From assembly GCA_018971305.1 (NCBI GenBank), contig JAGXBC010000001.1, forward strand, positions 173,956 through 237,955: a stretch of DNA of 64,000 bases. Reading direction: 5' to 3'. Below are positions 28,557-37,502 of this stretch, piece after piece. The notes under the pieces were generated by a model. The model was not told where the DNA came from, did no database searches, and worked only from the letters and a program-made list of their open reading frames with translations. A program made the translations under genes and the position numbers. Numbering within the stretch: the first letter of the stretch is position 1; each line of letters starts with the position of its first letter. The stretch is from Patescibacteria group bacterium. GTDB lineage: Bacteria > Patescibacteriota > Minisyncoccia > UBA6257 > 2-01-FULL-56-20.

Positions 28557-29549
28557 ATGAAACCAATTCTTGTTTCCGGCATCCAGACTTCAGGCCGATT
28601 GCACCTTGGCAATTATTTGGGCGCCTTAAAAAATTTTGTTGACCTGCAAAATTCGGGAAAGTACGATTGTTATTTTTTCTTAGCCGACTTACATTCATTA
28701 ACCGAGGCGTTCAATCCAGAAGATAAACATAAACAAGTCATTGAACTGGCCGCGGATTTTCTGGCTGCCGGCCTGGACCCCAAGAAATCCGTTATCTTCC
28801 AGCAATCGCAGGTCCCGGCGCATACGGAACTCGGATGGATTTTCAATACGATTACGCCATTCGGAGAATTAAACAGGATGACACAGTTTAAAGAGAAATC
28901 CGACGCGCAAAAAGAAAATGCGAATGTCGGGCTTTTAACTTATCCCACTCTGATGGCCGCCGACATTCTTTTATATGACGCCAAATTTGTGCCGGTTGGC
29001 GACGACCAAAAACAGCATTTGGAACTCACGAGAACTATCGCCCGTAAATTCAACGCCAAATTCGGCGAAACTTTCACGGAGCCACAACCACTATTTACAG
29101 CAGCCACTCGGGTGATGAACCTTGGCGAACCGGAGCGAAAAATGTCCAAGTCGCGCTCGCATCCACAAAACGTGATTTTCGTTGACGACTCGCCGGAAGA
29201 AATTTCCGCCAAAATAAAATCCGCCGTAACAGACTCCGGCTCGGAGGTTAAGTACGACATCAAAAACAAACCCGCAATAAGCAACTTGCTTACTATCTAT
29301 TCCGCCCTAAGCGGAGAAGCCATCCCTAAACTGGAGAAATATTTCACAGGGAAAAAGTATTCAGAGTTCAAAGTTAAGCTTGCAGAGCTGATATCCGATT
29401 ACTTCGCGGATTACCGCAAGAAGAAAAAGTTATTACTCGCCAAACCGCAGACACTTATAACAACGCTCAAATCCGGTTCAGCCAAAGCGGCAAAAGTTGC
29501 CGACAAAAAGATACACGAAGTTAAAAAAATAATAGGATTGGCGATTTAA
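28557..29549 (+). CDS. trpS: tryptophanyl-tRNA synthetase
   Basis: HIGH-region equivalent SGIQTSGRLHLGNYLG. KMSKS motif (RKMSKSRSH). 330 aa, class I TrpRS. Confidence 0.95.
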   Translation: MKPILVSGIQTSGRLHLGNYLGALKNFVDLQNSGKYDCYFFLADLHSLTEAFNPEDKHKQVIELAADFLAAGLDPKKSVIFQQSQVPAHTELGWIFNTITPFGELNRMTQFKEKSDAQKENANVGLLTYPTLMAADILLYDAKFVPVGDDQKQHLELTRTIARKFNAKFGETFTEPQPLFTAATRVMNLGEPERKMSKSRSHPQNVIFVDDSPEEISAKIKSAVTDSGSEVKYDIKNKPAISNLLTIYSALSGEAIPKLEKYFTGKKYSEFKVKLAELISDYFADYRKKKKLLLAKPQTLITTLKSGSAKAAKVADKKIHEVKKIIGLAI

Positions 29550-32500
29550 ATCTTCCTTACAGCCAACCAGGAATCCGCGCCGTTAACCTTCGTTTCCGCC
29601 TCCGCTTCAAATTTTTCCGATTTTTTATATTCTATCGCTTCGGCTCCGACCTCAACTTTCAAAACTTTTTCGTACTTGTAGATTGCGAGACGCACTTCCG
29701 CCGGCAACTGGGCCATCAATATCATTTTATCCTTCGGCTTAAGCCCGGATTTTTGCCGCAGCTCCTGAACGGCCCTTATTATCTCCCGCAATATACCCTC
29801 TTCGCGCAGTTCCGGCGTGACAACGGTATCCAGTTCAATTTCTTCCTTAAATCTGGCACTGAAAACAACTTTCTTAATATTCACCTCTTCTGCTAAAATA
29901 CCAAGCAATTCTTTGGGAATCTTCAGCTTTCCGGTTTTAACCCTGAGTTCACCGAGAGGCTGACGGACTTTTATTCCCGCCTCCGCCCGCTTGGCCAATC
30001 CCAAACTAGCCAAACGCCTCACTTCGGCCATTCCTTCCAGTAATTTAGAATTTTGAGTTTTTAATTTTGGTTTTGTCTCCGGCCAATCTTCCAAATGAAC
30101 TGATTCCTGCGTTCCGTTAAGTTCTCCGTAAAGTAATTCCGAAAAGAATGGTGCGAAGGGAGCTGTTAGTTTCGCCGTTTCACGCAGAACCAAGCCGAGT
30201 GTGGCGCAAGCCGAATCAAAATCCTTGGCGCTCTCCGGTTTTTGCAAGCGCCGGCGCGAACGGCGGATATACCAGCGCGACAGATCGTCAACCAACTTCT
30301 CTATAACAAGCGCGGCTTCTCTTATTTCGTATTTATCCAGGTGCTTTGTGGTATCGGCAACAGTTTCTCCGAGCCGAGACAGAATCCATTTGTCCAGAAC
30401 ATTGGTCGAGGATGGAATTTTATCTCCCGAACTTTTCTCGCTCGCATATGTTTTATAAAATACCAAACTGTTCCAAAGAAGCATGTGCATCCTGCGGTAT
30501 GTTTTCGAAATCTCGTTCTCGTCAAAATTTTTTGTCTCGCCCGGAGGATTCACGGTATAGAAATACCAGCGGACGGCATCAACTCCGTATTTATTGATAA
30601 CCTCCCAGGGGTCAACTATATTCCCTTTGGACTTGGACATTTTCTGCCCGTGCTTATCGTTTATCAGCCCCAAAGAAACAACGTTCTTATATGGCGCCGG
30701 GTATCCCAAAGATGTAGCAACTGCAAGCAGGGTGTAAAACCATCCTCGCGTCTGATCCATTGCCTCCGAAATATAATCTGCCGGATAAGCGCGGCTTTTG
30801 TCTATAGCATCCTCATTCTCAAAAGGATAATGCTGCTGAGCGAAAGGCATTGAGCCGGAATCAAACCAGACGTCAGCTACTTCTTTGACCCGTCCTGTTC
30901 TCGCGCCGCATTGCGGGCAGGCAATATGGATACCATCGGCATATGGCTTGTGCAGGTCTATAACTCCAGTACCATCACGGGGCACTATCTTTAGAGTTAA
31001 CTCTCTTGTTTCAGCTACGCCGATAAAATCCTGGCCACGGCTTATTTTTTCCCGTATAGCGCGTTTTTCATCCCATGCTTCCGCCGCGTGCGTAAGCATC
31101 CAGATCGGATACTCATGGCTCACGAGCAGGATATTCTTGCCGCGGTATTTTTTTTCCAATTCCTGCAAAATTTCCCAAACCCGACTGCGCAAATCGCGCA
31201 GGGACTCGCCTCCTTCCGGCTTGCCCTCAAACTTTGATTCGTATGTGGGAAAAAGCTTATGGTAGCGGCTATCACGGCCCCCCTGAAGCATTGAACCCAA
31301 ATCTACCTCGCGCAGACGTTTGTCGAAAACTACTTTTTTGACGCCCAATGCCTCCGCCGCAATCTCGGCTGTTTCTTTTGTCCGGATTATGTCCGAAGAA
31401 ACGATGACGTCTATTTTTTTTCTGCTGCTTTTTAGTTTCTGCAAAAAATTTTTCGCCGACTTTTCCGCGAGCGAGCGGCCGATAACGGTCAAAGTGTTGT
31501 CTTTAGACCAACCGGAATCAATAAAGTGTTCGGCGTTGCTTTTCGCCTCTCCGTGCCGCATAACCCAATAATTATTCCTGGAACCTCCGGCAAGCTTACT
31601 GAGCTCGTCAATGCCTCCCGCCACTTCGCAGTGATTGCATTTTTTGCATTCCCAGATCGGTAACGGCGTTCCCCAGAACCGTTCACGGGAAAAATTCCAA
31701 TCTTTAACCTCACGCAGCCATTCGCCGAAACGCCCCTGTTTTACGTATTCCGGCGTCCAATTGATTTTATTGTTATTGGCTATAAGCTGCTTCCTTAAAC
31801 CGCTCATGGCTACGAACCAGGAATTTCTTGCGTAATATAGAATTGGCGTGCCGCACCGCCAGCAGTAGGGATAATCATGCTTGTAGGGAAGAACTTTCAG
31901 GAGCGAACCGCGCTGTTTTAAATGTTCAACGATGCCAGCCTCGGTTTCCTTGGACTTCGCGAACAGGCCGGAGAAACCAGAAACGTCCTTAGTGAACTTC
32001 CCAACTTCATCAACCGTGTGATACCTCGGTAAGCCGACTTTAAGTCCCAGCTGATAGTCATCTTCGCCGTACATAACCGCAGTGTGGACTACCCCGGTTC
32101 CCTCTGTCGTATTAACAAAATCGGCGTCGTAAACCTTGTACGAACTTGGCGAACGCAATGCCGGAATTTCAAAAAGCGGCTCGTAGCTCAGGCCGATAAG
32201 TTCGTTCCCCTCAAAAATCTCCCTCAGGTCGGGGGCGGAACCAAAAATAGCGGGATTATTCTTAACGGCTTCCTCAGCTACAATCCAACGCTCTATTTTC
32301 CCGTCAATCATCTTCTTCAGTACGGCGTATTTGATGTTTTTACCAACGGCCAAAGCCACATTTCCTGGGAGCGTCCACGGCGTAGTCGTCCAGGATAAAA
32401 CATACGTATCATCTCCCGCCGAGAAATATCCGCCGATTTTCTGCCCCCTCTTCAATTTGAATTTTATATAAACGGAGTCATCAGTAGTTTCTTTGTAACC

Positions 32501-33076
32501 CAAAGCAAGCTCGTGCGAAGAAAGCGACGTGCCGCAGCGCACGCACCAGGGAACTACCTTATGTCCCTTATAAAGAAGTTTTTTTGTCCAAAAGCGCTTT
32601 ATTATCCACCAAAGAGTTTCTATGTAGGAGCTTTCGTAAGTTATGTAAGGGTCTTTCAGGTCCAGCCAAAAGCCCATCCGTTTTGTGAGGCGCTCCCATT
32701 CGTCTTTGTATTCCCAGACGGACTCGCGGCATTTTTTATTGAAGGCCTCAACGCCGTAGTTTTCAATGTCCTTTTTCGTTTTCAGGCCCAATTGTTTTTC
32801 CACCCCTATCTCCACGGGCAATCCGTGCGTGTCCCAGCCGCCTTTTCTCGGAACCAAATAGCCCCGCATCGCCTTGTAGCGTGGGATTATGTCTTTGAAG
32901 GCACGAGCCAGAATATGGTGCACGCCCGGCCTGCCGTTAGCAGTTGGCGGACCCTCGTAAAATATGAACTTTTTAGCGCCTTTCCGCTTAGCGAGAGTTT
33001 TTGCAAAAATGTCGCTTTCGTTCCAAAATTTCAAAACTTTTTCCTCCTCCTTGGGAAGATTGAATTCTTCGGGCAT
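29546..33076 (-). CDS. ileS: isoleucyl-tRNA synthetase with an inserted histidine-phosphatase (PGAM-like) domain
   Basis: HIGH motif PPTANGRPGVHHILARAF. CP1 editing domain. KMSKS (HGQKMSKSKGNIVDP). The anticodon-binding C-terminus is intact. Between the zinc-knuckle Cys pairs WECKKCNHC (aa about 476-483) and IACPQCGARTGR (aa about 719-728) lies a 230-aa insert instead of the usual 30-40 aa. Confidence 0.95.
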   Translation of the reverse strand: MPEEFNLPKEEEKVLKFWNESDIFAKTLAKRKGAKKFIFYEGPPTANGRPGVHHILARAFKDIIPRYKAMRGYLVPRKGGWDTHGLPVEIGVEKQLGLKTKKDIENYGVEAFNKKCRESVWEYKDEWERLTKRMGFWLDLKDPYITYESSYIETLWWIIKRFWTKKLLYKGHKVVPWCVRCGTSLSSHELALGYKETTDDSVYIKFKLKRGQKIGGYFSAGDDTYVLSWTTTPWTLPGNVALAVGKNIKYAVLKKMIDGKIERWIVAEEAVKNNPAIFGSAPDLREIFEGNELIGLSYEPLFEIPALRSPSSYKVYDADFVNTTEGTGVVHTAVMYGEDDYQLGLKVGLPRYHTVDEVGKFTKDVSGFSGLFAKSKETEAGIVEHLKQRGSLLKVLPYKHDYPYCWRCGTPILYYARNSWFVAMSGLRKQLIANNNKINWTPEYVKQGRFGEWLREVKDWNFSRERFWGTPLPIWECKKCNHCEVAGGIDELSKLAGGSRNNYWVMRHGEAKSNAEHFIDSGWSKDNTLTVIGRSLAEKSAKNFLQKLKSSRKKIDVIVSSDIIRTKETAEIAAEALGVKKVVFDKRLREVDLGSMLQGGRDSRYHKLFPTYESKFEGKPEGGESLRDLRSRVWEILQELEKKYRGKNILLVSHEYPIWMLTHAAEAWDEKRAIREKISRGQDFIGVAETRELTLKIVPRDGTGVIDLHKPYADGIHIACPQCGARTGRVKEVADVWFDSGSMPFAQQHYPFENEDAIDKSRAYPADYISEAMDQTRGWFYTLLAVATSLGYPAPYKNVVSLGLINDKHGQKMSKSKGNIVDPWEVINKYGVDAVRWYFYTVNPPGETKNFDENEISKTYRRMHMLLWNSLVFYKTYASEKSSGDKIPSSTNVLDKWILSRLGETVADTTKHLDKYEIREAALVIEKLVDDLSRWYIRRSRRRLQKPESAKDFDSACATLGLVLRETAKLTAPFAPFFSELLYGELNGTQESVHLEDWPETKPKLKTQNSKLLEGMAEVRRLASLGLAKRAEAGIKVRQPLGELRVKTGKLKIPKELLGILAEEVNIKKVVFSARFKEEIELDTVVTPELREEGILREIIRAVQELRQKSGLKPKDKMILMAQLPAEVRLAIYKYEKVLKVEVGAEAIEYKKSEKFEAEAETKVNGADSWLAVRKI

Positions 33077-33103
33077 AGATTAAAAATATCACGTTATTCG
33101 TAT

Positions 33104-34072
33104 CTATTCAAAAAATCTGCTGCGTATTTTATGGGTATTGCCATGGCTCAAAAGTCCAAGATAAGCGTTAATCGTCGCTGGCGCTGGGTTGGCTATTACC
33201 ATCTTTAACATTCTTCTTCTCGTCGTTGTCCGAAAAACACGGTGATCAGGAAAATTTATCCACCCCAAAAAATCAACTCCGGACGCAATGGTATTTATGA
33301 AAATTTTATTTGGATGAAGCGTAAGTCGCAATTTATTTTCCAAAAATTCTTTTATTTTTGGAACTAGAGATTCCAGCAATCCGCGGTTCTCCGAGAAAAT
33401 AACGAAGTCGTCCGCATAACGTATATAGTGCCTTGTTTTCAGTTTGTGCTTCACAAACTGGTCAAACTCGTTCATATAAACATTTACAAAGAGTTGTGAA
33501 GTGAGGTTGCCGAGCGGTAAACCTTGTCCAGGCGCGCTTGATGAAAAACTCTCGATAACTCTTTCCAGGAGCCGCAGCGTATCAGCGTCTGGGATATATG
33601 AACGTAGAATATCAAGGAGGACGGCGTGGTCGATGTTGGCAAAAAACTTTTGAATGTCACACCTGAGAACCCAGGAGGTACGCGTATTGTTCTTACTAAT
33701 AATGCGGGCGAACGCGCGAAAACGATTCATTGCGGCATGCGTTCCTTTTCCGACTCGGCATGAGAACGAATCAGCTATGAAAGTTTTATCGAAGAACGGA
33801 TAGAGCACCCGGTAGATGGCGTGATGGAGTAAGCGGTCGCGGACGGTTGCCTTGTGGATATTCCGCGGTTTCGGGTCGCAGATGTTGAATGCTTGATACC
33901 CACCGTGTCGGTACGCACCGTTCAAAATATCCGCGCGAAGTGATAGAATGTTATCCATAAGGCGCGATTGGAACTCCTGCACATCACGTTTCCCGCTCTT
34001 GCCGCGCAAAAATTCCCTCCAGGCCTCAAGCAGGTTTTCCACGCTTATGATTTCCTCAAATTTATGAACCAT
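33104..34072 (-). CDS. diversity-generating retroelement reverse transcriptase
   Basis: The start is Met of MVHKFEEIISVENLLEAWREFLRGKSGKRDVQEF (domain 0). RT motifs ...IHKATVRDRLLHHAIY..., GLPLGNLTSQLFVNVYMNEFD (DGR-type motif 4) and IRYADDFVIFSE (YADD). No maturase/X domain. About 322 aa. Confidence 0.85.
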   Translation of the reverse strand: MVHKFEEIISVENLLEAWREFLRGKSGKRDVQEFQSRLMDNILSLRADILNGAYRHGGYQAFNICDPKPRNIHKATVRDRLLHHAIYRVLYPFFDKTFIADSFSCRVGKGTHAAMNRFRAFARIISKNNTRTSWVLRCDIQKFFANIDHAVLLDILRSYIPDADTLRLLERVIESFSSSAPGQGLPLGNLTSQLFVNVYMNEFDQFVKHKLKTRHYIRYADDFVIFSENRGLLESLVPKIKEFLENKLRLTLHPNKIFINTIASGVDFLGWINFPDHRVFRTTTRRRMLKMVIANPAPATINAYLGLLSHGNTHKIRSRFFE

Positions 34073-34105
34073 CTTAATTTTCACAATAAAAATTTTCAAG
34101 TAACT

Positions 34106-34116
34106 CCCCCCCCCCC
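34106..34116. repeat. C11/G11 homopolymer tract between the divergent RT and Avd-like genes
   Basis: 11 consecutive C on the plus strand. It sits 30 nt after the RT start codon (on the opposite strand) and just after the in-frame stop (TAA 34101) that precedes the Avd-like frame. Confidence 0.9.
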
Positions 34117-34121
34117 GACAC

Positions 34122-34460
34122 ATCACGCTTCCTATCATCCAACACCTGGTAGCGGCGTACAAAACCTGGCATGAATTTCTGCCGCATGTACCCAAGGATG
34201 CGAGATACTCGTTAGGAACTAAGGTCGACGCTTCGTTTATAGAAACGATTGAAGCGGTATTCACCGCAAGCTATCTCAGTAGAGAGAGTAAACTTCCTTA
34301 TCTCGAAAAAGCTGCCGCGAAACTGGACATGGTTAAATTCTTTCTCCAGATAATCTGGGAAGTCAAGGCGCTCGACAATAAAAAATATATTACACTCTCG
34401 GAAAAGCTGGATGAAATAGGCAGAATGCTCGGCGGATGGCTTAGGAAAATGTCTACTTAA
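34122..34460 (+). CDS. Avd-like four-helix-bundle accessory protein of the DGR (no canonical start codon in frame)
   Basis: The plus-frame translation is ITLPIIQHLVAAYKTWHEFLPHVPKDARYSLGTKVDASFIETIEAVFTAS...KLDMVKFFLQIIWEVKALDNKKYITLSEKLDEIGRMLGGWLRKMST*. It follows the Avd/TIGR02436 pattern (VW.K...L...IY..T..FPK.E.Y.L.SQ.RRAA.S...NIAEG; E..F..IA.GS..E...QL..A; EI.KML..LI..L). The first in-frame codon after stop 34101 is CTC. ATC at 34122 or ATG at 34064 (+1 frame, across the C11 tract) are the only start candidates. Confidence 0.6.
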   Translation: MTLPIIQHLVAAYKTWHEFLPHVPKDARYSLGTKVDASFIETIEAVFTASYLSRESKLPYLEKAAAKLDMVKFFLQIIWEVKALDNKKYITLSEKLDEIGRMLGGWLRKMST

Positions 34461-34497
34461 ACCATTCCGCCGGACATCGCCCGTTGTTTTCATTTGC

Positions 34498-34624
34498 TGC
34501 CAATTACTCGCGACGCGACCGTTGCGATTGAAGTCGTTGTCAAGCCAGTTCCAGTTCAGGTACCAGCGCTCGCCGTTCTGATTGAGGTAGGGAACGTTCC
34601 GGTTGCCGTTCGCGTTCAGCACGA
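34498..34624 (-). repeat. DGR template repeat (TR)
   Basis: 127-nt repeat matching 34958-35084 (offset 460). On the minus strand it reads ...VLNANGNRNVPYLNQNGERWYLNWNWLDNDFNRNGRVASN with 8 AAC codons. Confidence 0.85.
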
Positions 34625-34886
34625 ATGTGCGCAAGGCCGTCCGGGCCACCATCCTTCGAGTCACAAACAAAAACCATACTCTCGGGATTGTATCGTATTC
34701 GGAATTTTGAATTCCTTAGCCTCGCACACCAAGTAGCAACAATTATGAAGCGATTAACGAATGCACGCTAGGAGAAAACCCGTCCTCCCCCATTCCGGCA
34801 GACGCCATCGCGGAATTCGATGCGCACAACCTTAGCCGTGCGCATAATATCTACTATCCATAAGGATTATATCAAAAAAATTTAAT

Positions 34887-34908
34887 GGGCCCTAACGAAT
34901 TAGGGCCC
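34887..34908 (-). other. GC-rich hairpin with UUCG loop downstream of VR (DGR-associated hairpin / target-gene terminator)
   Basis: Minus strand GGGCCCTAA-TTCG-TTAGGGCCC, a perfect 9-bp stem, 52 nt after the target stop. It is followed by ATTAAATTTTTTTGATATAATCC. Confidence 0.7.
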
Positions 34909-34959
34909 AAGGGTTGAGGGTTCAAGCGACACAAAGGATCTGAGTCACAAGAACCAATG

Positions 34960-35580
34960 CTACTTGCTCGCGACGCGACCGTTGCGATTGAAGCCGCAGT
35001 CAAGCCAGCTCCGGCCCAGGTACCAGCGCTCGCCGTTCCGACTGAGGTAGGGAACGTTCCGGTAGCCGTTCGCGTACAGCACGACCAAACCCGGAAAATC
35101 GATGTAAACTTTTCCGAGAAGGGACATGAATACGGGGAATTCATCCTGGTGCTCAACAAGCCAAACGGCCTGCTGGTAACCCAGGACAAGATTCCGGCGG
35201 GACACGAGCCTGCGCTCGTATTCGCTGCCAACGATAGACTTCTCGTCAGAACGCAACAATGTGCCAAGACGGAGAATAACTTCATCGGTTGGCGAAGAGT
35301 CGGACTCGATTTTTTCGATCTGAGAGAACGCCCTGCGGAGTTCCTCGAGTGTCGGCTGCTTCAGGGCTGGAATCCGAACGGCGACATCTTCCATCGTCTT
35401 CCAGAATTCCAACATCTTGATCTCGGCGTTGCCGAGATAGATGTCACGGACGCCTGAAAGGTTGGTGCCGGTTGAAAGCCATTTTACAAAATCGGGCGTG
35501 CAACCATTCCGCTCAAGCGCATGATCGAATTCTGCGGCTTGGCGAGCAAACATGACGGGTTGAGACTTGTCATTAGGCAT
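34960..35580 (-). CDS. DGR target protein with C-terminal variable region (VR 34963-35084), probable minimal C-type-lectin/FGE-like fold
   Basis: 206 aa. The C-terminus VLYANGYRNVPYLSRNGERWYLGRSWLDCGFNRNGRVASK aligns to the TR. The residues that differ from the TR are mostly where the TR has AAC (Asn) codons. AAGGAGG RBS 7 nt upstream of ATG 35580. No signal peptide. Confidence 0.8.
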   Translation of the reverse strand: MPNDKSQPVMFARQAAEFDHALERNGCTPDFVKWLSTGTNLSGVRDIYLGNAEIKMLEFWKTMEDVAVRIPALKQPTLEELRRAFSQIEKIESDSSPTDEVILRLGTLLRSDEKSIVGSEYERRLVSRRNLVLGYQQAVWLVEHQDEFPVFMSLLGKVYIDFPGLVVLYANGYRNVPYLSRNGERWYLGRSWLDCGFNRNGRVASK

Positions 35581-35600
35581 GACATGTCCTCCTTTTCTAT

Positions 35601-35725
35601 GCGACGTGTTCCAGATTAGGAACGTGTCGCGATGCCACTGGCTCCCCCGATCAAACTGGGTTTTGCCATAGCAGAAAACTATCCGATTGCCTAGAGCTTA
35701 TCGAAAGGCTTTCTGCTATGGCAAA
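35601..35725 (-). promoter_or_regulatory. structured 5' leader of the DGR target gene
   Basis: A 16-bp perfect inverted repeat TTTGCCATAGCAGAAA (35662-35677) / TTTCTGCTATGGCAAA (35710-35725) has a 32-nt spacer. A 10/12 inverted repeat GCGACGTGTTCC..GGAACGTGTCGC (35601-35630) abuts the RBS. An extended -10 TGTATAAT lies on the minus strand near 35755-35762. Confidence 0.4.
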
Positions 35726-35774
35726 TGTAAATAAATCAGGTTTTCAAAGTACGCTACAATTATACACCATATTA

Positions 35775-37502
35775 CTATATTCTGTCAATAGCAGTGATTC
35801 CCAATAAATTCAGCCCTTTTTCTATGATTTTCGCCGTTATATTAATAAGCCCAAGAAGCGCGCTCCGCCGACTGGCGGATTCTTCTTTGAGTACCGGCGT
35901 GGTTTCGTATAAACGGTTAGCCAACACGGCCAGCTTATAAAGATAGTTAGCTAGGTTGCTCGTCTGCAGTGTTTCCCCACTTCGCGCCACTTCGTCGGGA
36001 AATTCAAAAATTTTCCGAGCGAGCGCAAGTTCAACATCAGAATTTAATAATGTAAAGTTCTTGCTTTTAGGTTTTAGAGCTTGGGACTTTCTTAAAATAC
36101 TCTTAAGGCGGGCATACGTGTACTGCAAATACGGCCCGCTGTCTCCGGAAAAATCCAGCATTCTTTTCCAGTCAAAAACGATGTCGGTTGTGCGTCCCTC
36201 CCGCAAATCATTGTATTTCAAGGCTCCAACGGCAACCGCCTCAGCGATTTTATCTTTTTCTTTAGCCGATAATTCTTTATTTTTTTCTTCAACAATCTCC
36301 CTCGCCAGCTTGATAGCCTTACCTAAAACCTCTTTAAGTAATATGGTCCTCCCTTCGCGTGTAGCGAGCTTTTGGCCGCTCTCCCCTAGAACCAAACCGT
36401 ATTTAACGTGCTTGAGTTCAACCCCATCGGCCAATCCAAGAATATTAGTTATGGCGAAAAGCTGTTCAAAGTGCAGAGATTGTTCGTTGCCCACAACATA
36501 TAAAATTTTCTCCGGCTTATATTTTTTGACACGGTATTCAATATTCGCAATATCGCGCGTAAGGTAAAGGGATGCTCCATCCGCTTTTTCTATTAACGCC
36601 GGAGGCAGATTGAACTTATCTAGTTTTATAACTATCGCGCCCTCGCTTTTTACGGCGACGCCGTCTTGCACAAGGCGCGAAACAAGCGGCTTCATATCTT
36701 TCTCAAAAAAGCTTTCGCCTTTCCATTCGTCGAACTCTACACCGAGCTCTTTATATGTTCTCTCGAATTCTTTAAGCGATTCTTTTTTAAACCATTGCCA
36801 AAGCTTGCGGTTTTCCTTATCGCCTTCTTCTAATTTTTTGAATTCTTCCTGGCCCTCCAGCTCCAATCCCGGGCGGGACTTCATCTCGTCGTGAAAGCGG
36901 ACGTAGAGCTTCTGCAATTCCTCTATTGGTTTTTCTTCTATCTTTTTCTTATCGCCCCACATTTTATAGGCGGCGATAAGTTTGCCGAACTGCGTCCCCC
37001 AGTCGCCCAAATAATTCCAGCGGATAACTTTATATCCCAGTGATTCAAAAACATTGGCAAGCGCCGCGCCGATTATCGTTGTCCGCAAATGGCCCACGTG
37101 CATCATCTTCGCGATATTCGGCTGAGAATATTCAACGATAACGGTTTTGCTTTTTCCAATACTTCTCTCGCCATATTTTTTTATATTCTTGGTAACCATG
37201 GCCAATTCGTTTTGCAGCGCTTCAGGTGAAAACCAAAAGTTTATAAATCCCGGCGCAGCGGCTTCAACTTTTTGGAAAAACCCAGCCGGCGCAGCGGCAC
37301 TAATTTTCTGCACCAATTCCCTGGCCAGTTCAAGAGGATTTTTCTTTTCCCGCTTAGCCAAAACCATAGCCAAGTTCGTGGAATAATGGCCGAAGTTTTC
37401 TTGTTCCGGAACTGTAACGCTAAAATCTCTGCCATCGGAAAACTCGGATAAAATTTTTATTATCTTATCTTTCATTACCATTAAGAATAATATAAAAAGC
37501 AA
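35775..37502 (-). CDS. argS: arginyl-tRNA synthetase
   Basis: 575 aa. HIGH-type motif region MMHVGHLRTTIIGAAL. Class I ArgRS domain order: N-terminal add-1, catalytic core, DALR anticodon-binding C-terminus. Confidence 0.95.
   Translation of the reverse strand: MLFILFLMVMKDKIIKILSEFSDGRDFSVTVPEQENFGHYSTNLAMVLAKREKKNPLELARELVQKISAAAPAGFFQKVEAAAPGFINFWFSPEALQNELAMVTKNIKKYGERSIGKSKTVIVEYSQPNIAKMMHVGHLRTTIIGAALANVFESLGYKVIRWNYLGDWGTQFGKLIAAYKMWGDKKKIEEKPIEELQKLYVRFHDEMKSRPGLELEGQEEFKKLEEGDKENRKLWQWFKKESLKEFERTYKELGVEFDEWKGESFFEKDMKPLVSRLVQDGVAVKSEGAIVIKLDKFNLPPALIEKADGASLYLTRDIANIEYRVKKYKPEKILYVVGNEQSLHFEQLFAITNILGLADGVELKHVKYGLVLGESGQKLATREGRTILLKEVLGKAIKLAREIVEEKNKELSAKEKDKIAEAVAVGALKYNDLREGRTTDIVFDWKRMLDFSGDSGPYLQYTYARLKSILRKSQALKPKSKNFTLLNSDVELALARKIFEFPDEVARSGETLQTSNLANYLYKLAVLANRLYETTPVLKEESASRRSALLGLINITAKIIEKGLNLLGITAIDRI

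Follow-up and report, generated by a model that had tools for sequence, protein, structure and literature searches.

In the diversity-generating retroelement (DGR) of Bordetella phage BPP-1, the accessory gene avd is co-directional with the rest of the cassette (avd-TR-brt, where TR is the template repeat), has an ordinary start codon and is not known to carry a repeat tract. Its product, Avd, is needed together with the element's reverse transcriptase (RT), bRT, for adenine-mutagenic cDNA synthesis (PMC6182149). Patescibacteria, the candidate phyla radiation (CPR), are significantly enriched in DGRs (PMC8144416), and 90% of the CPR DGRs studied by Wu et al. 2018 (Nucleic Acids Research) have architecture B3, TR-(avd)-RT, where the reverse strand carries avd (PMC5758913). 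Poly-G/C contingency loci are known from Campylobacter, Neisseria, Haemophilus and Helicobacter (PMC8355987, PMC5084427, PMC4965091). Here we analyzed the DGR in a 64,000-nucleotide stretch of a Patescibacteria group bacterium (contig JAGXBC010000001.1 of assembly GCA_018971305.1, positions 173,956 to 237,955, forward strand; hereafter the window), in which the leader of avd is interrupted by a run of 11 cytosines (C11). Comparison with related loci suggests, with a probability of about 0.6, that this C tract is a slipped-strand, phase-variable switch of avd. The features on which the argument turns are the following, in window positions.

34064..34105, plus strand: avd leader, ATG + 14 codons (MNHLNFHNKNFQVT) up to the C tract, overlapping the RT start codon antisense.
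34101..34103, plus strand: TAA stop in the Avd frame, just 5' of C11, which shuts the Avd frame to upstream starts.
34104..34460, plus strand: Avd reading frame after the frame break, encoding a four-helix bundle (helices at residues 23-130 of the 131-aa form) and ending in the stop TAA 34458-34460.
34106..34116, plus strand: C11 tract, encoding Pro-Pro-Pro; proposed slipped-strand switch, here at its putative OFF length, C10 or C13 being ON.
34122..34124, plus strand: ATC codon, the start in the public annotation of the contig (112-aa MBU6500401.1), probably not the real start.

An earlier reading of the letters alone (the sequence-only reading) had pointed out the C11 run, the TAA at 34101 and an Avd frame without a start codon, and a check of the sequence confirmed all three. 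After the TAA the frame reads CTC CCC CCC CCC CGA CAC ATC, and no ATG, GTG or TTG is found in it between that stop and the helical core; the public protein, in which ATC 34122 is translated as methionine, begins MTLPIIQ. The frame opened by ATG 34064 (MNHLNFHNKNFQVTPPPPTHH...) terminates after 36 codons with C11 and is one base out of frame with the Avd core (a +1 shift is needed). Translation of the altered lengths confirmed the further claim that ATG 34064 joins the Avd frame at C10 or C13. ATG 34064 on the plus strand and the RT start ATG 34072 on the minus strand overlap, so that the RT and avd coding sequences share 9 nt; the earlier statement that the two start sites lie about 50 bp apart has to be corrected, for the distance of about 50 bp is that between the RT start and the helical core. 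The tract is the sole C/G run longer than 7 in the window, where about 0.01 C/G runs of at least 11 would be expected at its composition by our own estimate, and CCC makes up 21% of the proline codons in its long open reading frames (ORFs). Because it is the only such run and CCC is a minor proline codon, C11 is neither a chance feature nor one of codon usage. In this way, a tract capable of slipping lies inside the coding region, in the avd leader, and its length switches the frame: C10 gives a 131-aa Avd, and C11 gives a 36-codon leader ORF followed by an Avd frame without a start.

If the tract is a switch, C11 would act as a hypermutable simple-sequence repeat (SSR) and form a contingency locus within the part of avd that encodes the disordered N-terminal leader. 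Translation from ATG 34064 would have to pass the C tract to reach the four-helix core, and slipped-strand mispairing at replication would alter the tract length, so that at C10 or C13 the core would be in frame (ON), and at C11, as in the window, or C12 the leader ORF would end after its 36 codons (OFF). If Avd were scarce or absent, the DGR would cease to diversify its target and a useful variant would be locked in; in the minority of cells slipping back to ON, hypermutation would resume. The whole would form a two-tier evolvability device, with a stochastic switch atop a targeted mutator. The broader proposition is that DGR hypermutation is phase-variable across CPR through a conserved leader repeat (poly-C, sometimes (AG)n or (CA)n), as a heritable and reversible trait of subpopulations with most lineages OFF; here we put the odds at about even.

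The plus-strand frame 34104-34460 encodes a genuine DGR Avd, as the sequence-only reading had supposed from its likeness to a four-helix bundle. The frame scored 56.6 bits against PF22296 (bAvd; cut-off 40) and 77.1 bits against NF033474 (DGR Avd), slightly under the cut-off of 80, and PF22296 was present in all 120 homologues among the matches listed. For the in-frame protein, AlphaFold gave a model (pLDDT 87.8) with helices at residues 23-41, 44-69, 73-99 and 105-130, and residues 1-22, the leader, are predicted to be disordered, so the leader should tolerate PPP as well as PPPP. In a Foldseek search the model matched BPP-1 Avd (4dwl) with a target-normalized TM-score of 0.87 and a root-mean-square deviation of 1.8, as well as the Avd chains of the DGR ribonucleoprotein structures 8ub7 and 8ubb. 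The frame also adjoins an RT and a pair of template and variable repeats (TR/VR) with adenine-specific differences, as in a DGR cassette.

To which start codon this core belongs bears directly on the role of the tract. Comparison with homologues points to ATG 34064, antisense to the RT start, as the true start of avd. In homologues the core is preceded, in frame, by the same leader (M.QLNFH...PPP), and these leaders (MDNKLNFHKNFSKEAPPRFNLPIIQ or MNSPVTPPRHLTLPIIQ) correspond to what the window would give if the peptide read from ATG 34064 continued at the prolines into the Avd frame. As in the window, the ATG of avd is typically found 8 nt within the RT start in homologous loci, and the sister assembly with C10 is annotated from ATG 34064. 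The motif M.QLNFH of Avd and the N-terminus of RT (e.g. M-K-I-Q-L) are dual-coded on opposite strands of about 21 bp (window 34064-34084), an arrangement conserved in homologues; GTG 34084 and ATG 34072 of the window RT are in one frame. Because these 21 bp also encode the RT N-terminus, conservation of the leader peptide is weak evidence of translation, and we used the conservation of frame in repeat-free loci instead. Among the 10 classified loci that are repeat-free (C run of at most 6 and no dinucleotide repeat of at least 5 units; our own tally), the RT-overlapping ATG is in frame with the core in 10/10, and several of them have no other start before the core. Since repeat-free loci keep ATG and core in frame, an ORF across the tract site is under selection.

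The sequence-only reading had also allowed for a rare ATC start, with which avd would begin at ATC 34122 as a constitutive, leaderless gene. Such a start is permitted in translation table 11, was used in the public record MBU6500401.1, and leaves a product with all four helices, since residue 23 of the long form is the first of helix 1. Relatives speak otherwise: a near-cognate codon (ATT, ATC, ATA or CTG) was found between tract and core in only 5 of the 56 out-of-frame loci, at varying positions. There is no purine-rich ribosome-binding sequence before ATC 34122, the preceding bases being CCCCCGACAC, and the sister assembly uses ATG 34064. ATC 34122 is probably an annotation convenience, not conserved in relatives, and its use as the real start appears scarcely credible.

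A survey of related Patescibacteria DGR loci was then set against the window. We fetched 160 loci, of which 146 remained after de-duplication (788 kb in total). Wherever the flank sufficed, RT and avd were head-to-head in nearly all 160 and not co-directional, which had been named beforehand as a comparison that could expose an assembly or orientation artefact. A tract, defined as eight or more consecutive C in the 75 nt preceding the Avd core, was present in 118 of the 146 loci (81%), with lengths of C8 in 19, C9 in 39, C10 in 38, C11 in 14, C12 in four, C13 in two, and C14 and C30 in one each. C/G runs of at least 8 numbered 117 at the avd site versus 2 elsewhere in the 788 kb. The distance from tract to Avd core was tight (median 9 nt, interquartile range 9-12), and that from tract to the shared start region was loose (13-57 nt).

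The reading frames of these loci were strongly mixed. For the 74 long-tract loci with a placeable RT-overlapping start, the start was in frame with the core in 18, needed a shift of -1 in 28 and of +1 in 28, and a uniform distribution was not rejected (P-value = 0.26). The frame followed the length, C9 being mostly in frame, C10 mostly +1, and C8 and C11 mostly -1. In 46 of the 56 out-of-frame loci, the Avd frame has no canonical start codon before the core. The OFF loci were nevertheless undecayed, with intact Avd cores and, where the contig allowed, full-length RT. Furthermore, dinucleotide repeats, (AG)7, (AG)11, (CA)8, (CA)18 and (CA)5, replace poly-C at the avd-leader site in five loci (L069, L076, L102, L144 and L154), and the three out-of-frame loci without a C run of at least 7 are all dinucleotide-repeat loci. 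The claim that tract length gates avd thus gains support from a tract that is conserved, variable in length and frame-scrambling throughout the family, and for which other repeats can substitute.

Further observations were made at these sites. One locus (L137, Ga0209542_10000534) has its 30-nt C tract in the avd leader inside a 91-kb contig, and the C14 tract at the avd-leader site belongs to L108. One of the two off-site C/G runs of at least 8 is a G12 at a contig end in L102 (3311-3322), 800 nt downstream of avd, possibly another copy, in opposite orientation, of the avd-type repeat site. A poly-proline peptide was considered as the selected feature and rejected, as repeat-free homologues have no PPP and (AG)n or (CA)n can substitute; it is also disfavored by the prolines lying in an uninterrupted C run though CCC is a minor codon.

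The uniform frames can be read in another way. With about three quarters of the long-tract loci out of frame and every Avd core intact, the tract might be a site of programmed or tolerated recoding, where slippage of the polymerase or the ribosome (on CCC_CCC_C, or through poly-proline stalling) would give a steady low amount of Avd from any length and the tract would set dosage. It is known that tRNA-Pro can slip by +1 on CCC-C, and one strain keeps the out-of-frame length C10 throughout nine assemblies. Leaky OFF alleles are on record as well, since frameshift suppression has been shown to make frameshifted SSR alleles leaky for an (AG)n phase-variable gene (2026 preprint, 10.64898/2026.04.01.715767). 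A recoding site would, however, be expected to favor one direction, and the needs for +1 and -1 are equal (28 and 28) with no single conserved direction; no conserved stimulatory element was seen at the tract, the flanks of which are not conserved; and the (AG)n and (CA)n substitutes are classical substrates of DNA slippage, not polymerase or poly-proline slippage sites. Length differences also exist at the DNA level within strains. A uniform programmed +1 frameshift at CCC_C was rejected, states needing -1 being as common as those needing +1. With 18 loci needing no shift at all and dinucleotide repeats substituting, the pattern is not that of a programmed ribosomal frameshift, and the genomic frame at the tract is not fixed among relatives, unlike in known cases of programmed transcriptional slippage. 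We consider recoding unlikely as the main function of the tract. It partly overlaps with a phase switch and is not exclusive of one: slippage of RNA polymerase or of the ribosome likely gives some leaky rescue of OFF alleles, which is compatible with the switch model.

The position of the tract also bears on whether it serves the other strand. On the strand of the TR-RT transcript the tract occupies the bases 34-44 nt before the RT start codon, and a promoter-like TTGAAA-17-TAAGAT follows it immediately on the minus strand. The tract could be a poly-G element of the RT mRNA in its 5' leader, or the spacer of a divergent promoter, that tunes RT or TR-RNA, with the effect on the avd frame collateral. 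Promoter-spacer C tracts are an established mode of phase variation, as in the Bordetella fim promoters. Such a role is very unlikely, because the tract is placed tightly relative to the Avd core and loosely relative to the RT start, repeat-free loci keep ATG and core in frame (10/10), and the minus-strand promoter-like site would initiate transcription at or after the RT ATG.

Differences in tract length were detected between assemblies that are otherwise nearly identical. The 90% cluster of the window's annotated Avd consists of two proteins, P0001 (112 aa, MBU6500401.1) and P0121 (131 aa; MDE2015099.1 and MDE2226527.1), and the latter is exactly the product predicted for C10, MNHLNFHNKNFQVTPPPRHITLPIIQ... 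Over the 6,397 bp of window 31064-37460, the sister assembly (L170, JAGWKQ010000001.1) differs only by having one C fewer in the tract (C10); its VR is identical to that of the window, and its contig measures 319,837 bp against 319,838 bp for the window contig. This C10 allele of the same strain, encoding a 131-aa Avd, further supports the gating of avd from ATG 34064 by tract length, and we conclude from the sequences that C11 in the window would be the OFF allele and C10 in the sister assembly its ON counterpart. In a second strain (L171-L178), the 1,300-nt flanks are identical save for one single-nucleotide difference in L171, with C9 in six assemblies from different samples, C10 in one and C11 in one; only C11 is in frame. 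In a third case (L018 and L101), 800/800 flank bases are identical, with C10 (out of frame) in one and C9 (in frame) in the other. A Logan contig matched via the isoleucyl-tRNA synthetase gene stops 18 nt before the C tract and is uninformative on its length.

A simpler explanation of the window itself is a homopolymer miscount, which the sequence-only reading had named as the dull alternative: the organism would truly have C10 and a normal 131-aa avd. Two other public records of the window strain have C10 and the in-frame gene, the contigs differ by exactly 1 bp, so that the same data polished differently are possible, and runs of at least 10 are error-prone. Assemblers evidently have trouble at the tract, as eight or nine contigs terminate 0-12 nt from it (L024, L098, L113, L125, L131, L134, L157 and L169) and masked or N stretches abut it in two loci (L031 and L055). 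What a miscount leaves unexplained is the existence of the tract, given 21% CCC among proline codons and 117 runs versus 2 elsewhere in 788 kb, its span from C8 to C30, and the occurrence at this site of dinucleotide repeats, which are read reliably by sequencing and are likewise out of frame. Length calls are reproducible in two other strains (C10 in nine assemblies and C9 in six), and no other indel occurs between the window-strain assemblies in 6.4 kb, apparently none in 320 kb. A miscount of C10 as C11 could still affect the window's own tract, and that part of the earlier reading stands; the family-wide pattern is not explained in this way, and as an account of the locus sequencing error is quite unlikely.

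Several points weigh against a phase switch. The need for Avd in CPR DGRs is carried over by analogy from the Bordetella phage, and the conservation of M.QLNFH alone is no proof of translation, as the RT N-terminus is coded opposite. Most loci are OFF, which fits equally a model where RNA or ribosome slippage supplies Avd regardless of the genomic frame. A Ryanbacteria strain (P0075) has C10 (OFF) in nine assemblies with no variation in length, and four other pairs with identical flanks agree in tract length. The length differences between assemblies could be technical, from stutter or polishing at runs of at least 10, and the two window-strain assemblies, with contigs of 319,838 and 319,837 bp, may share raw data. 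The nine-assembly C10 strain and the four agreeing pairs also imply that switching is not very fast and that consensus states are fairly stable.

A slipped-strand switch is nonetheless the reading we prefer, because the tract is enriched specifically at this site, frames track its length, repeat-free loci are in frame and length differences occur between identical flanks. What poly-C, (AG)n and (CA)n have in common is slipped-strand mispairing of DNA, and not a proline peptide, a poly-G RNA or a ribosomal slippery site. From these sequences we infer that length changes arise in vivo, frequently and reversibly, and that OFF alleles would be truly without Avd. Because BPP-1 cDNA synthesis needs Avd with RT (PMC6182149), it is likely, by analogy with that phage, that the phase of the tract controls DGR diversification reversibly. 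In the DGR literature searched no reconstituted CPR DGR was found, and the requirement for Avd is known only from BPP-1 (PMC6182149).

The rest of the cassette was delimited from ORFs, repeats and pattern matches as follows.

33104..34072, minus strand: DGR reverse transcriptase, 322 aa (RVT_1, 83.9 bits), with GTG 34084 as an alternative in-frame start.
34498..34624, minus strand: template repeat (TR), a 127-nt direct repeat with differences at adenines.
34958..35084, minus strand: variable repeat (VR), the 127-nt repeat at the 3' end of the target gene.
34960..35580, minus strand: DGR target gene, 206 aa, from the ORF list.
33921..33949, plus strand: promoter-like site, candidate avd promoter (TTCAAA-17-TAGAAT, extended TG) inside the RT 5' coding region, a consensus match only.
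34846..34875, minus strand: promoter-like site upstream of TR, candidate for the TR/antisense-avd/RT transcript, a consensus match only.
34886..34909, minus strand: terminator-like hairpin and T run between the target gene end and TR, a pattern match only.

On the minus strand the order is VR 35084-34958, TR 34624-34498 and RT 34072-33104, with avd (34064-34460) on the plus strand between TR and RT, which is the arrangement of architecture B3. The RT is annotated identically in the sister assembly, 10 of the 11 TR/VR core differences fall at TR adenines, and the target gene had no Pfam or NCBIfam match. ORFs and repeats thus agree with the earlier placement of TR, RT and target on the minus strand and avd divergent from them. 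The divergent orientation is not distinctive; it is already known, having been published as B3 for 90% of CPR DGRs (PMC5758913).

Beyond the cassette, a perfect sigma-70 consensus, TTGACA-18-TATAAT (12/12), lies at 35759-35788 on the minus strand, about 180 nt upstream of the target gene, and an inverted repeat with 26-nt arms (85% complementary) at 35662-35725 falls in the would-be 5' leader of that gene; the two may take part in target-gene regulation. The neighboring isoleucyl-tRNA synthetase (29546-33076, minus strand, 1176 aa) has a PF00300 His_Phos_1 domain inserted between two tRNA-synt_1 segments, as read from the precomputed Pfam lists of an identical protein.

Public annotation of these genes is affected by the frame. 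Avd annotations truncated inside helix 1 (MAAYK..., MPHVPK...) or started at ATC were found in P0001, P0011, P0016, P0043, P0075, P0091 and P0101; in most of these CPR genomes Avd is truncated or mis-started because the leader is out of frame, a systematic artefact of gene calling. As gene callers treat avd in this way, surveys of Avd may under-count or mis-annotate it, and such DGRs might be wrongly scored as defective.

One recent study implicates transcript levels in whether DGR mutagenesis is turned on, kept low or off (10.1101/2024.11.15.621889). If the switch is real, a repeat-gated accessory factor would be a simple answer to DGR control in Patescibacteria, the largest environmental DGR reservoir, and diversification of VR should follow the frequency of the in-frame allele in metagenomic time series. 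The switch would also be a clear contingency locus in Patescibacteria, where searches limited to DGR-related terms turned up none. No repeat-gated avd was found in the literature on DGRs or Avd with homopolymer, phase variation, frameshift or contingency, a check outside which Paul et al. 2017 (Nature Microbiology) lies, and the available parts of the DGR surveys searched make no mention of a homopolymer, frame disruption or phase variation in avd. Likewise, in the passages of Wu et al. 2018 that were covered, among them the account of architectures, there is no word of a repeat or homopolymer within avd, of a disrupted frame or of phase variation (PMC5758913). We classify as new the proposed application of a classical repeat-mediated phase switch to a hypermutation retroelement, conserved across Patescibacteria, the identity of Avd and the architecture being already known.

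Compared with known systems, the window Avd shares with that of the BPP-1 DGR (4dwl; ribonucleoproteins 8ub7-8ube) the four-helix bundle, the Pfam and NCBIfam family, and an adjoining DGR RT, TR and VR, at about 18% identity in fold alignments. The window avd differs in being divergent, in sharing its start region with RT antisense and in having a 22-residue disordered leader with a C tract. Its gene order and orientation exactly match CPR architecture B3 (PMC5758913). Like the avd tract, the contingency loci of pathogens are G/C runs, some 8-13 nt long and located early in a coding region, that turn the frame on or off, with ON and OFF alleles among genomes and tract lengths that differ between close relatives. 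Those loci are host-associated and mostly gate surface structures and restriction-modification genes, whereas the window tract would gate a component of targeted hypermutation; the avd repeat is conserved in environmental Patescibacteria over a very broad set of lineages. Programmed transcriptional slippage in Thermus dnaX, Shigella mxiE and some IS transposases uses A/T runs in a fixed genomic frame. Genes such as dnaX and mxiE resemble avd in having a homopolymer inside the coding region and a functional product that needs a non-genomic frame, but in avd the run is of C, the genomic frame is not constant, either between relatives or within strains, and a dinucleotide repeat can take the place of the run. 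Reversible mutators are also known in which a tandem repeat switches a mismatch-repair gene, for example Salmonella mutL; in them, as proposed for the avd tract, a slippage-prone repeat toggles the capacity to generate mutations. The mutL-type switches alter the genome-wide mutation rate via loss of repair, whereas the avd tract would toggle site-specific mutagenesis of one target gene.

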